This document shows positions 8,210 through 12,148 of a stretch of DNA of 18,553 bases, piece after piece. The notes below the pieces were generated by a model that worked only from the letters and a program-made list of their open reading frames with translations, was not told the origin of the DNA and did not search any database. Each line of letters begins with the position of its first letter. Positions within the stretch are counted from its first letter, which is position 1. The DNA comes from a virus (Duplodnaviria; Heunggongvirae; Uroviricota; Caudoviricetes), in IMG/VR virus record IMGVR_UViG_2541047776_000006. One strand, written 5' to 3'. Both the position numbers and the translations under genes were made by a program.

Positions 8210-8505
8210 TTCTGCTCTCTCCACGCGGCAATCATGTTTTTCAGTTCCTGTAGTTTTTTATCCACATTCACACGTGACACATGGTTATTTCTGGAAAGCG
8301 GGATTTCCCGCCTGAATCTGCTAATAAAGATCTCCACGTTCAGCGAACTATGAAATGAATAGCCATCACGAATAAAATACACACGGTCAAACATCAGTTC
8401 TTTTACCGTTACTCTGTTACCGTTCTTATCCAGATAAATAGCGCCGGGGATAATTTTGGGGTGTGCATAACCGCTGGCAGTCAAGCCAGATAAATATGTT
8501 CTCAT
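8206..8505 (-). CDS. Hypothetical protein (99 aa)
   Basis: ORF tightly packed in the minus-strand operon, with ATGA coupling to the primase start. No recognisable motif. Confidence 0.5.
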   Translation of the reverse strand: MRTYLSGLTASGYAHPKIIPGAIYLDKNGNRVTVKELMFDRVYFIRDGYSFHSSLNVEIFISRFRREIPLSRNNHVSRVNVDKKLQELKNMIAAWREQK

Positions 8506-8511
8506 GATTAT

Positions 8512-8832
8512 TTATCCCCGATTTGAATCAGTATTCGCTTTCTTTATGGCATTTAATGCATCTGTGGCATTTTCAATGGTGCACCGTAACGAAATATCAA
8601 ACTGCCCAAGCATTGCCAGTAACAAGCCAATATTCCCCATGTCAATGCGCATAGCCTTTTCGTCATAGTCCTCATTTTCTGACGCATGCCACATCAGGCT
8701 ACCAATTGACGCAACAGCCATTGATATATTGTCAGTAGCCCCATCCGCAGCGGAATAAACCTTTTTAGCAATATCATGCTCACAGTTAAAATGCGGATTA
8801 ATCAGGTACTGGTAATTTGACATATCAGGCAT
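8512..8832 (-). CDS. Hypothetical protein (106 aa)
   Basis: ORF in the same operon, 6 nt upstream of the 99-aa ORF. No recognisable motif. Confidence 0.5.
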   Translation of the reverse strand: MPDMSNYQYLINPHFNCEHDIAKKVYSAADGATDNISMAVASIGSLMWHASENEDYDEKAMRIDMGNIGLLLAMLGQFDISLRCTIENATDALNAIKKANTDSNRG

Positions 8833-9028
8833 GGCACACCCCCTGACGAATACGGGCAGCGAATACCATCACGCAGCCAGCCGGGGATTGCTGGCGTGCT
8901 TCCTGTTCGCTGGTGGCCACGATGTGAATCACGCGCGGTTGTGCCGTGCTCAGGGCGATAAAACGCCAGATGTATTTATTCAGGTTGTGTGAGTCCCGCC
9001 CTTGCGGGTGTATGGTATGATTTAACAT
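8825..9028 (-). CDS. Small protein (67 aa), possibly Icd-like
   Basis: This is the C-terminal part of the 304-aa track ORF, starting at ATG 9028..9026 with GAGGT 5 nt upstream (MLNHTIHPQGRDSHNLNKYIW...). Its stop overlaps the next gene start. The Icd-like resemblance is from memory of P4-family annotations. Confidence 0.35.
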   Translation of the reverse strand: MLNHTIHPQGRDSHNLNKYIWRFIALSTAQPRVIHIVATSEQEARQQSPAGCVMVFAARIRQGVCHA

Positions 9029-9110
9029 AGCTACCTCGATACTATCGTTATCGTTGGTGGTTAGACGCCCTGCATGTGTTGCGAGCACTGCGGGGCGTTG
9101 CTCCTCTAGG

Positions 9111-9152
9111 TGTATTTCACCTTTGCTTTTTAATTTACTCACTGGTGAAATA
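9111..9152. promoter_or_regulatory. Candidate operator: perfect 12-bp inverted repeat GTGTATTTCACC-N18-GGTGAAATACAC in a divergent promoter region
   Basis: Read directly in the intergenic region between the minus-strand operon start (9028) and the plus-strand RHH-like gene (9222). A TATACT -10-like hexamer lies at 9186-9191. Confidence 0.45.
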
Positions 9153-9221
9153 CACTTCAAGCCTTTTTTTATCATTTTTTTTGCGTATACTGACATACAC
9201 CAATTTTTAGGAGATCCAGAA

Positions 9222-9401
9222 ATGGCAACTGGTGCAAAGAACGCAAAATCACAAATGACAACTGTCAGAATCCCACATGAAGTAATGGATGATATTGAGC
9301 AACTTAAAGAACCTGGCGAAAGTACCGCTGGTTTTTTAGTTACTGCCGCAAAAGGCGAGATCAAACGCCGCCAGCGGCGCAAGGCCAAAGAGCAGGAGTA
9401 A
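9222..9401 (+). CDS. Small DNA-binding protein, ribbon-helix-helix-like (candidate island repressor)
   Basis: ATG at 9222 preceded by AGGAG. 59 aa: MATGAKNAKSQMTTVRIPHEVMDDIEQLKEPGESTAGFLVTAAKGEIKRRQRRKAKEQE. The MTTVRIP beta-strand-like N-terminus and basic tail fit RHH proteins. The track shows it as the 3' part of the 9054..9401 ORF. Confidence 0.5.
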   Translation: MATGAKNAKSQMTTVRIPHEVMDDIEQLKEPGESTAGFLVTAAKGEIKRRQRRKAKEQE

Positions 9402-9457
9402 CCATCACCAGCGCCGTGGTGCGGTGAACTGTGGCGCACAGGGTTACAGGTATCTAC

Positions 9458-9637
9458 GATGACTGACAAATCATTAAAGAAATTATCCTCATCCAGGAAA
9501 AAACAACGCAAAAATGCGGTAAACGAACATGAACCGGAGAGATTCGCACCATGTGCGTTTGTCCTTGAGAAGTACCTTAAGGAGTATTCTAGGAAAATAC
9601 GCTCATTGCAGGCATGGCAACGAATCGAGCCAGACTG
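9458..9637 (+). CDS. Small hypothetical basic protein (59 aa)
   Basis: Found by hand; it is under the track's length cutoff. MTDKSLKKLSSSRKKQRKNAVNEHEPERF... Weak RBS, but it sits between the RHH gene and a plus-strand terminator. Confidence 0.25.
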
Positions 9638-9702
9638 ATAGCATTGCCCACTAGCCGACAACCTGGTATTCTGGATATGCTCAAGTTTAGTGTTATGCCA
9701 CT

Positions 9703-9730
9703 GGCGACCGCCCCCGGTCGCCTTTGTTTT
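9703..9730 (+). terminator. Rho-independent terminator (plus strand)
   Basis: GGCGACCG-CCCC-CGGTCGCC, a perfect 8-bp stem, followed by TTTGTTTT. Confidence 0.55.
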
Positions 9731-9748
9731 ATGTGTCATAGCTCCCCC

Positions 9749-9973
9749 CTAGGCTGCCTTACCTGAATTAACGCGGTCACGGCTTTGCACCCAGTCTATA
9801 ACTTCGGAAAGCAACCAGCCTACAGAACGCCCCCCAAGATTACGGCGAGACGGAAAGCCCCCTTTCTTCTCCAGTTCGTAGCGTGTAGTACGGCTGACGC
9901 CTGTTAACTTACGACATTCATCCTCACGAATTACGCGATCTGTTAGTGATTGAAATTGTGTATTTTGATTCAT
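9749..9973 (-). CDS. alpA: AlpA-family transcriptional regulator / excisionase-like protein
   Basis: 74 aa with the characteristic AlpA HTH segment (LTGVSRTTRYELEKKGGFP...GGRSVGWLLSEVIDWV). Confidence 0.8.
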   Translation of the reverse strand: MNQNTQFQSLTDRVIREDECRKLTGVSRTTRYELEKKGGFPSRRNLGGRSVGWLLSEVIDWVQSRDRVNSGKAA

Positions 9974-10076
9974 AAAAACACCCTCGAACGTAACCGAACG
10001 AGGGCATCTTATTTACCATAGCAGTTGGTGCAATATTGGAAAAATAAACTTTATTCTAATTTATCGTTCTCCATGA

Positions 10077-10931
10077 TTAATTTTCATTAGATAACATTTT
10101 TCTTATTTTTTCTAAAGAATCGCTGCGCATTATTTTTTCTAAGAAGGGTTTTACAGTCTGAGCAATAGCAAAGGTGTCCTTTTCACCATCAGGGTACAAA
10201 GATACGGCAAGCACCCCTAATGAAATTTTTCTATCTGTAGACAACTCCCAAGATAATAAGTCAATTAATGGGATTATCTTATAATCAATAATTTTACGTC
10301 GTATGCTTTCCCAACTTCCTGCAATTGGTTTGTCTGGCTCAACAATTGAAAGTTCACTACGCCATTTTGGTAATAGTTTTGTAAACGCTTCAATCAACTC
10401 ATCATCTCTGTTATGTAGTAAGTCAACAGAAACAAGCATATTATCTAATGTATCAGAAAGGAGATTCACTGGTTCACGCATCACAGCCCAAAACATCCCA
10501 TTATCTTCTGATATTAAACTTCCAACCATCTCATTATCTATGATGATTGGTTTATCCTTCCAATATCCTCTTTCCGCAGTCAGTTTATTAATCATTGATA
10601 TATCAAACCTTGTTACAGGTTTAATTCCATCATCATAACTTAGCTCAATTAACTTCGGCTGCACTTTATGGTCATATTCTTTTTGTTTATCACAAAACCA
10701 ATCGTCTTCGTTCAGCTCTCCAAATGGATCCCCGTAATTATTATGCAACGGGTATTCAGCACCAAACATAAAACCATATTCAGGCATCTCAGAATGTTTC
10801 ATTGTTAAATCATCTTGTCGCCAATATAATTGGCGAAATAGATCTTTATCCGACAAGTTTTCTAGGCAATCATATTTGCCTAAATCAAATGACTTTGGTA
10901 AATCTTTTTTACTATTTACTTTTTTCGTCAT
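10077..10931 (-). CDS. Hypothetical acidic protein (284 aa), cargo gene translationally coupled to the integrase
   Basis: Its start overlaps the int stop (ATGA at 10928-10931). Visibly AT-rich, with no motif I recognise. Occupies the int-alpA slot. Confidence 0.7.
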   Translation of the reverse strand: MTKKVNSKKDLPKSFDLGKYDCLENLSDKDLFRQLYWRQDDLTMKHSEMPEYGFMFGAEYPLHNNYGDPFGELNEDDWFCDKQKEYDHKVQPKLIELSYDDGIKPVTRFDISMINKLTAERGYWKDKPIIIDNEMVGSLISEDNGMFWAVMREPVNLLSDTLDNMLVSVDLLHNRDDELIEAFTKLLPKWRSELSIVEPDKPIAGSWESIRRKIIDYKIIPLIDLLSWELSTDRKISLGVLAVSLYPDGEKDTFAIAQTVKPFLEKIMRSDSLEKIRKMLSNEN

Positions 10932-12148
10932 TGTATCCCTCTCAATATCACAATATTTTCATTATATCCCGCAATCATATCAAGACGCTCAACCCATAGA
11001 TTCAGTGCGTCCCGTTTCGCCTGCAAATAGCGTGAATGGTTATAGGTTTTTTGCTGACCTGGCATCTGATGCGCTGTGATGTGCTCCACGATATGCGGAT
11101 CGACACCTAAATCATTCAGCATAGTTGTAAACGTGTGTCGGAAATCATGCAGCGTCCAGTGTTCCTGCTTAAGCCGCTTATGCGCATTTCGTCCATATTG
11201 CGCCACCGTGGTATCTTTTTTCAGTTCGCCGAGTAATAACCCAGTGTGTGCGTTTTGCTCCACCAGCTTCTGAATGAACGGCAAAATGCCATCAGGAATA
11301 GGTCGGAATATTGTTACCTTCGTTTTGCTGTGCTCTTTTGGCACTGTCCACAACATTTCTTTCAGATCCCATTCTTTGATCTCTGAAAGTCTGATCTCTG
11401 CCGTTCTGCACCCGAACACAATTAACAAGCGCATTAACGCACTGTAATAGGGAGCGAACACATCACCATCAATAGCGCGTAGAATTTCTTTTAGTTCGCT
11501 GTTGCTGTGCACTCTCTCGCGGATTTCTGCTCTCTTCCCCACATCAGTAACGATCAAATCGTCCAGGGCGTTGCTAAACGCGTAGCGCCGCCTGCGGCAA
11601 AACTTTAGCGCCTGTTTGCATGTCTGCATGACATGGCCCGCTGCTACTGGTGCTTTTTTTCGTACGCGGTCAAAACATACGATCCACTGCCTTGTATCAC
11701 ACTTATCAAGGGGAATTGCCCCTATATGGCAAATGATGTGCTTATCCATACGCTGCACCAGCTTTATGTAATCTTTGCGGTTATCCTTCGCGTATTCCTC
11801 CAGCCAGTAGTTAATCGCTTCCTTCACCGTAACGGGTTTTAGTGCTTCCTGTACTGTGGCGCACAACTCATACCGAGGGTTTTTACCCTCAGCCAGCCAT
11901 GCCCGGCACTGTGTTCGCTTTTCCCTTGCAGATTTCAGCGACAATTCCGGGTAAGCCCCCAGCTTTAACCGCTCTGCGGCAACCTCACGGCCTCCCGTTC
12001 GGTACCGGAAATACCAGGTTAATTTGCCTCCCTTTGAGTGTTTAATCTCCAGCCCACCCCCGTCGGAGTAAAAACGCTCTTTTTCTGCCTGGACAGCCAC
12101 CAATTTTTTTAACGTTGAATCGCTCAGTTTGTTTAGTGCTTTTCCCAC
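10928..12148 (-). CDS. int: Tyrosine-type site-specific integrase
   Basis: 406 aa with catalytic-domain signatures (GCRTAEIRL, HDFRHTF, C-terminal ...HSRYL). The start is GTG at 12148..12146 with AGAGGA 7 nt upstream. It sits 190 bp from the right att core. Confidence 0.9.
   Translation of the reverse strand: MGKALNKLSDSTLKKLVAVQAEKERFYSDGGGLEIKHSKGGKLTWYFRYRTGGREVAAERLKLGAYPELSLKSAREKRTQCRAWLAEGKNPRYELCATVQEALKPVTVKEAINYWLEEYAKDNRKDYIKLVQRMDKHIICHIGAIPLDKCDTRQWIVCFDRVRKKAPVAAGHVMQTCKQALKFCRRRRYAFSNALDDLIVTDVGKRAEIRERVHSNSELKEILRAIDGDVFAPYYSALMRLLIVFGCRTAEIRLSEIKEWDLKEMLWTVPKEHSKTKVTIFRPIPDGILPFIQKLVEQNAHTGLLLGELKKDTTVAQYGRNAHKRLKQEHWTLHDFRHTFTTMLNDLGVDPHIVEHITAHQMPGQQKTYNHSRYLQAKRDALNLWVERLDMIAGYNENIVILRGIQ

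Follow-up and report, generated by a model that had tools for sequence, protein, structure and literature searches.

A predicted ribbon-helix-helix repressor, three putative operator boxes and a candidate antisense RNA between the divergent operons of an Escherichia coli phage satellite

Introduction

Several characterized systems share parts of their logic with the regulatory locus described here, which lies between two divergent operons. The closest in logic is the immI region of phage P22, where small ribbon-helix-helix (RHH) repressors, Arc and Mnt, act at divergent promoters together with the sar antisense RNA. Small structured RNAs that act on the leaders of icd-like or alpha-primase operons are known as well, namely the CI RNA of P4 and the c4 RNA of P1, the latter lying upstream of icd-ant. 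Each is released from the sense transcript by processing and base-pairs with repeated targets. Further RHH repressors include Omega of pSM19035 and CopG. Among satellites, the Stl (Rpr) repressors of SaPIs and Gram-positive phage-inducible chromosomal islands (PICIs) show the same layout as our locus, with the repressor gene divergent from the replication module and placed between the integrase and primase sides (PMC6092414).

For Gram-negative PICIs the global repressor has been described as "unclear" (PMC6092414), and our search of the literature found no published repressor for these elements. Their known activator is AlpA, which switches on the PICI genes downstream of alpA (PMC6092414). 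Proteins of the YlcI/YnfO family that occur in satellites have been named only "prophage-associated protein" (PMC13612085).

The window analysed here is a stretch of 18,553 nucleotides held as IMG/VR virus record IMGVR_UViG_2541047776_000006. A preliminary description of it had pointed to positions 9029-9221, between a leftward replication operon and a rightward RHH-like gene, as the likely seat of a repressor-operator switch built on an inverted repeat. We compared this region with its relatives and asked which of its parts are conserved, which protein would read them, and which other regulatory elements the region holds.

Results

The island in the window is a decayed PICI-type phage satellite of E. 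coli. The window is 100% identical to the E. coli chromosome NZ_CP031215, where the island sits between thiM and rcnR, and the gene order is that of a Gram-negative phage-inducible chromosomal island. The integrase gene, alpA and a primase-type replication gene stand in one orientation and are followed by an iteron origin (Table 1), and the order int-alpA-(RHH)-icd...primase is conserved in relatives. The only remnants of packaging or capsid genes are a frameshifted ClpP-type head protease and a DUF1441 gene. Because the head-maturation protease has been pseudogenised by its frameshift, the island is partly decayed, and for that reason the switch may have lost its importance in this strain. 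A HEPN-domain gene, possibly accessory or defence cargo of the satellite, lies between the origin and the frameshifted ClpP-type head protease (coordinates 5288-6001, plus strand, and 4485-4778, minus strand).

Table 1. Positions of genes and of predicted regulatory features in the window.
Feature	Position	Strand	Remarks
Origin-like iterons	6156-6380	both orientations	GGTGAACAG; downstream of the primase gene
D5/P4-type primase gene	6392-8224	-	leftward operon
DUF4222 gene	8206-8505	-	leftward operon
106-aa ORF	8512-8832	-	leftward operon
icd-like gene	8825-9028	-	first gene of the leftward operon; NCBIfam NF033153, Pfam, recurring ATG/Shine-Dalgarno, PGAP start elsewhere
Candidate extended -10 of the antisense RNA promoter	9013-9021	+	TGgTATGAT, within the first codons of the icd-like gene
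Candidate cis-antisense RNA, ~80 nt	9028-9108	+	RNAalifold, covariation
RNA helix P1 (closing)	9028-9035/9056-9063	+
RNA small hairpin	9037-9041/9049-9053	+
RNA terminator-like GC hairpin, then U-containing tail	9064-9080/9084-9099	+
Box 1, candidate operator	9110-9120		GTGTATTTCAC; left arm of the repeat; at ~+6 to +16 of the predicted P_L transcript
P_L -10	9132-9137	-	TAAATT, 17 nt from the -35
Box 2, candidate operator	9145-9155		GTGAAATACAC; right arm of the repeat; fills the 17-nt spacer of P_L
P_L -35	9155-9160	-	TTGAAG
P_R -35	9164-9169	+	weak, T-rich
P_R -10	9186-9191	+	TATACT
Box 3, candidate operator	9190-9200		cTGACATACAC; overlaps the last 2 nt of the P_R -10 and the expected start site
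YlcI/YnfO-family RHH gene, 59 aa	9222-9401	+	inferred repressor
orf59	9459-9638	+	unannotated; probable second gene of the rightward operon
Intrinsic-terminator-like hairpin	9703-9722	+	8 pairs, 7 G-C, then TTTGTTTTAT; between orf59 and the alpA 3' end
alpA (AlpA family)	9749-9973	-	Pfam PF05930, 55.7 bits; converges on the repressor operon
DUF6387 gene	10077-10931	-
Integrase gene (int)	10928-12148	-

The unannotated reading frame that follows the RHH gene, orf59, probably represents a genuine second member of the rightward operon. Its product is 61% identical in amino acids to that of an ORF at the same position in locus L121, which stands beside a different RHH gene. An annotated hypothetical occupies this position in L120, and orf59 was not found in loci L002-L033. 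The strong terminator-like hairpin beyond orf59 has a U-tail on the plus strand only and is predicted to stop rightward transcription ahead of alpA. As there is no U-tail on the minus strand, transcripts from alpA may extend past the hairpin in the direction of the repressor gene.

The perfect 12-bp inverted repeat of the preliminary description is present, with GTGTATTTCACC at 9110-9121 and GGTGAAATACAC at 9144-9155, but its spacer measures 22 nt instead of the 18 nt given there. The TATACT hexamer lies near the RHH-like gene as had been stated. The left boundary at 9029 is also right, the ATG of the icd-like gene being most likely at 9028, in a CAT/CCTC layout that recurs in relatives. Scoring the longest perfect inverted repeat with a spacer of 3-40 in dinucleotide-preserving shuffles of 9029-9221, we found that none of 2000 shuffles reached 12 bp, and that 5 of the 2000 reached 10 bp. 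Three features had been absent from the first reading: a third copy of the half-site, overlapping the -10 element of the rightward promoter (9190-9200); a second, GC-rich hairpin (9064-9099); and the finding that the arms are not consistently inverted in relatives.

Comparison of 113 loci, drawn from IMG/VR contigs and a wide range of Enterobacterales (32 from one genome per species, 80 more from IMG/VR), aligned on the ATG of the RHH gene, identified an 11-bp box, GTG-N5-CAC, as the conserved unit. It occurs three times per locus at fixed positions, with cTG in box 3; five loci fetched later, outside the 113, served as a test set. Relative to the ATG, nearly all of the 113 loci have box 2 at -77, and nearly all loci have box 3 at -32; box 1 is found at about -99 to -115 (near -100 in the test set). 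The flanks are invariant. The N5 core varies between loci, but within a locus its copies are identical or 1-2 bases apart, and the core of box 3 is the same as or close to that of box 2. Boxes 1 and 2, separated by an interval of 11 to 25 nt, are inverted relative to each other in the window's class and three others and form direct repeats in at least five classes. Since several classes carry these two boxes as direct repeats, the inverted repeat is incidental and the box triplet is the conserved feature.

This comparison also bears on whether the repeat could act as a nucleic-acid hairpin, that is, as a terminator or attenuator of the leftward leader or as a cruciform, and not as a protein site. 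The arms are perfect over 12 bp, and a scan picked out AGGTGTATTTCACCT and the T-rich stretch after it (9108-9122) as resembling a plus-strand terminator. However, the direct repeats in L021, L024/25/27/29, L026, L028/31 and L030 are unable to pair, the 22-nt loop is AT-rich and of variable length between loci, a third copy of the box lies at the other promoter, and only the left arm falls inside the inferred P_L transcript. We therefore regard a hairpin function as highly improbable. Likewise, we give almost no credence to the notion that the repeat arose by chance or is a relic of a decayed island without current function. The pseudogenised head protease would suit such a relic, but the length of the repeat was not reached in any shuffle, and both the position and the triplet arrangement of the boxes persist from genus to genus, with changes occurring in concert.

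The boxes are placed on two predicted divergent promoters. The leftward promoter, P_L, resembles a sigma-70 promoter whose 17-nt spacer is essentially box 2. In the window P_L matches the consensus at only 8 of 12 positions and was missed by a generic promoter scan because that scan needs 9; the -35 of the rightward promoter, P_R, is poor. Among 75 distinct regions, the P_L -35 reads TTGACG in 27, TTGAAG in 23, TTGAGG in 10, TTGCGG in 5 and TTGACA in 2, and a TAnnnT -10 follows at 16-18 nt spacing in 73. The P_R -10 is TATACT in 56 of the 75, the remainder being mostly TATATT, TATAGT, CATACT or TATAAT. In essentially all loci boxes 1 and 2 bracket the conserved P_L -10. Judged from these site positions, the RHH protein would act as a repressor.

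A narrower role would be that the protein only autoregulates its own operon, for instance as an antitoxin to orf59, or serves as an architectural or partition factor, with no control over the replication operon. We consider this unlikely, as the boxes are kept in the loci that lack orf59 (L002-L033), and two boxes around the P_L -10, one of them filling the promoter spacer, would be needless for pure autoregulation.

The 59-aa protein belongs to NCBIfam family NF041551 (YlcI/YnfO), with a score of 64 bits against a cutoff of 30 over residues 9-50, and its RefSeq name agrees. It matched no Pfam RHH family at E<=10, a sequence-profile search of the PDB gave no match, Foldseek found no significant match for its model in the PDB, and tblastn of 50,697 phage records returned nothing useful. 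An AlphaFold monomer model (22 homologues, pLDDT 87.7) consists of an extended segment (residues 11-18), a first helix (19-28) and a second helix (35-58). Within the turn between the helices, G32-E33-S34, all 22 homologues share E33 and S34, and conservation of G32 is at least 90%. A G-x-S/T/N turn between the helices is a feature of the RHH fold, where it places the N-terminus of helix 2 for phosphate contact. The strand shows an alternating pattern, with hydrophobic residues at 13, 15 and 17, variable ones that follow N5 at 12 and 14, and the invariant R16. An hhalign alignment to Arc is weak (probability 10.7%, E 0.003); in its register, R16 and positions 14 and 12 face R13, N11 and Q9 of Arc, which are the base-contacting residues of that protein.

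The model predicts a ribbon-helix-helix DNA-binding protein, and the RHH-like label of the preliminary description is borne out by the strand-helix-helix arrangement, the G-x-S turn and the alternating strand residues, which fit the fold. Because the RHH fold accounts for the whole of the 59-residue protein, control by SOS self-cleavage is unlikely. In three Salmonella homologues (P0101, P0106 and P0120) the C-terminal half, ESTAGFLVTAAKGEIKRRQRRK, is identical to that of the window protein and the N-terminal strand is of the QVSV class, a combination suggesting that the part which sets specificity is exchanged as a module.

Across about 13 specificity classes, N5 changes together with the predicted DNA-facing strand residues, tracking residues 11-15 of the adjacent protein. 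The N5 classes are A[A/C]ATA (the window), AACAC, [G/T]ACTC, TGGCC, AAT[C/T]G, AATAG, TCTTA, AATGC, GCACC, A[A/T]ACA and TCAGC, with TTAAA added from the later test loci. Strand residues and N5 pair as MTTV with AAATA, QVSV with AACAC, KLQA with GACTC, ALKA with TGGCC, QLNA with AATCG, QIVS with AATGC, KMSA with GCACC, and both SVTA and SITV with TCTTA. The SVTA and SITV proteins differ at positions 13 and 15, have S12 and T14 in common, and both go with TCTTA. Similarly, the two classes with Q12 and N14 have AATCG and AATAG, one base apart. Mutual information with N5 peaks at position 12, in an alignment where many other columns are also high from shared ancestry.

The pairing was also put to an out-of-sample test on the contigs of three further homologues, P0120, P0098 and P0102. 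P0120 (Q,S) had AACAC in 3 of 3 boxes, matching the prediction. In P0098 (K,Q), box 3 read TACTC, as predicted, and box 2 read GATTC, 1 nt off. P0102 (T,A) brought a new pentamer class in an unchanged three-box layout. The boxes lie less than 150 bp from the codons with which they covary, and tight linkage contributes to the association. Linkage does not, however, account for the concerted change of three separate boxes around promoter elements that remain fixed.

Direct binding of the boxes by an RHH dimer is most likely what this covariation reflects. We infer that one RHH dimer sits on each box, where its two Arg16 side chains would contact the TG/CA flanks, invariant like the arginine itself, and N5 would be read by strand residues 12 and 14. 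An alternative would be that the repeat is a binding site for AlpA, through which AlpA switches on the downstream operon. The alpA gene lies just upstream, and AlpA has been reported to activate downstream PICI genes (PMC6092414). Box sequence is, however, uncoupled from AlpA. The AlpA proteins of L029 and L032/L033 are 100% identical over the ~59 aligned residues, yet their boxes are AACAC and TCTTA, respectively; conversely, the window and L002 have identical boxes and AlpA proteins that are only 27% identical. We consider an AlpA site very unlikely. The product of the first leftward gene, Icd, was likewise rejected as the binder, given loci (for example L085-L113) whose icd 5' end and leader are near-identical to those of the window but whose boxes differ.

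The preliminary description had also noted that the half-site shares GGTGAA with the origin iteron GGTGAACAG, with the caution that this may be coincidental. The sharing is real, and coincidence is its probable explanation, since GTG belongs to the invariant flank and AA is specific to the class. Coincidence or not, the AACAC-class operator GGTGAACACCAC (found for example in L027) has 8 nt in common with the same iteron.

Two loci differ from the others in their regulator. In L120 (2683-2880, plus strand) a divergent 65-aa member of the YlcI/YnfO family is preceded by three copies or near-copies of a 10-bp palindrome, TGTGCGCACA, which is not of the GTG-N5-CAC form. In L121, from E. coli O157:H7 SS52, an unannotated and unrelated-looking RHH-like ORF (2615-2788, plus strand; MSTPLEKRSPPYQMRLPEDF...) replaces the YlcI-type gene and has its own GGTAATTACCATG repeats, with the island architecture and the antisense-RNA region unchanged. 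PGAP places a pseudo 'Icd-like' gene on the strand opposite this ORF.

Between box 1 and the icd start codon the sequence is conserved across the compared loci, and this region also occurs in islands with a different regulator. RNAalifold, run on 51 distinct sequences, returned three helices in which 96.7% of the cells were paired and 14 of 23 pairs were compensatory; none of 500 shuffles equalled this. Wobble pairs distinguish the strands, with 163 G.U cells in the plus sense versus 6 in the minus sense, and the minus-sense version pairs only 83.3% of cells. In the window, the plus strand folds with -38.0 kcal/mol (z -4.8) and the minus strand with -24.7 (z -2.3). In 84 of 89 distinct loci a TAnnnT motif precedes the start-codon complement by 4 or 10 nt. 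Behind the RNA hairpin the window has a weak U-tail (GUUGCUCCUCU), and relatives have a better one.

The RNA would be fully complementary to the Shine-Dalgarno sequence and start codon of the icd-like gene. Its anti-Shine-Dalgarno sequence, CCUC, lies in the 5' strand of P1 in the window fold and in a hairpin loop in many relatives. Based on this conservation and covariation, we propose 9028-9108 of the plus strand as a candidate cis-antisense RNA over the icd-like ribosome-binding site and start codon. Across the whole window no Rfam family reached its gathering score, and a search of 8500-10100 up to E = 10 gave only noise; a C4, CI or sar RNA was rejected for want of an Rfam match. An AgvB-like anti-sRNA was considered because the minus-sense loop CAACACA resembles the GcvB target. 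This identity was rejected on two grounds: AgvB occupies the moron site of lambdoid prophages (PMC4104026), and the wobble pairs assign the structure to the plus strand.

For the icd-like gene, an ATG at 9028 with a GAGG Shine-Dalgarno sequence gives a protein of 67 aa, and the arrangement recurs across relatives. PGAP chose the GTG at 9088 (87 aa) in the identical record, but the equivalent ATG in another genome, and the GTG start was rejected in favour of ATG 9028 on the strength of the recurring ATG/GAGG arrangement and of PGAP's own ATG call elsewhere. The longer Icd-like call (8825-9088) would run through the hairpins of the antisense RNA.

Discussion

We consider it likely that 9029-9221 is the regulatory hub of the satellite, in which an RHH repressor acts on three boxes in combination with an antisense RNA. 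The repressor-operator switch put forward in the preliminary description gains support, at the level of sequence, from the covariation of the half-site with the strand residues of the protein and from the overlap of the sites with both divergent promoters. In the proposed mechanism, RHH dimers would recognise the three 11-bp GTG-N5-CAC boxes. Occupation of box 2, between the P_L -35 and -10, and of box 1, just past the P_L start, would block the replication operon, with its icd-like, DUF4222 and primase genes, and occupation of box 3 on the P_R -10 and start site would give negative autoregulation of the RHH gene. The inverted repeat first reported corresponds to boxes 1 and 2, which are oppositely oriented in the window's specificity class. 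As a second lock, the ~80-nt plus-strand RNA probably blocks translation of the icd-like gene.

Release might come about if AlpA drove transcription from alpA through the repressor gene and on into the operon. Such read-through could disturb the repressor gene and at the same time express the operon from upstream of its operators. A Pseudomonas AlpA works as an antiterminator (PMC7969949); together with the activation of downstream genes by AlpA, this makes release by read-through from alpA conceivable.

More tentatively, the module may be the immunity system of many Gram-negative satellites, with a hypervariable 59-aa RHH master repressor and a conserved antisense RNA lock that are both overridden by AlpA, a reading that we lean slightly against at present. 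If it holds, residues 12 and 14 and the 5-bp operator core would have co-diversified into more than 12 orthogonal specificities, comparable to the immunity groups of lambdoid phages. The antisense RNA would independently lock translation of the replication operon, and AlpA would override the module by read-through or antitermination.

The results provide the hitherto uncharacterised YlcI/YnfO family with a concrete predicted role, exact operator coordinates and two predicted specificity residues, and the candidate antisense RNA is previously undescribed. Of 5426 complete E. coli genomes, 1731 contain sequence related to the 271-bp region, many of these matches covering the icd/RNA part only, and 292 IMG/VR stretches encode a relative of the 59-aa protein. 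Furthermore, the roughly 13 natural repressor/operator pairs on one 59-residue scaffold could serve as orthogonal parts for synthetic biology.

How the locus relates to the known systems can now be specified. With P22 immI it has no detectable sequence family relationship. The P22 region has a single 21-bp operator bound by a tetramer and controls an antirepressor, whereas in the window one protein would serve three separate 11-bp boxes and is predicted to control the satellite replication operon; the two antisense RNAs also appear distinct, as the window RNA had no Rfam match, sar included. The Stl proteins are larger, of the helix-turn-helix type, and are inactivated by helper-phage proteins, in contrast to the non-homologous 59-aa RHH protein encoded downstream of alpA in the window. 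Unlike P4 CI and P1 c4, the window RNA would be a true antisense RNA, and the Rfam scan, which included the C4 family, was empty. Omega uses contiguous 7-bp heptads, whereas the boxes here are 11 bp long and 22-45 bp apart, and the YlcI/YnfO family comprises many natural specificity variants. From its sequence features, the window system belongs to neither the P22 immI nor the Stl family and is best filed as a system of the RHH repressor/operator kind.
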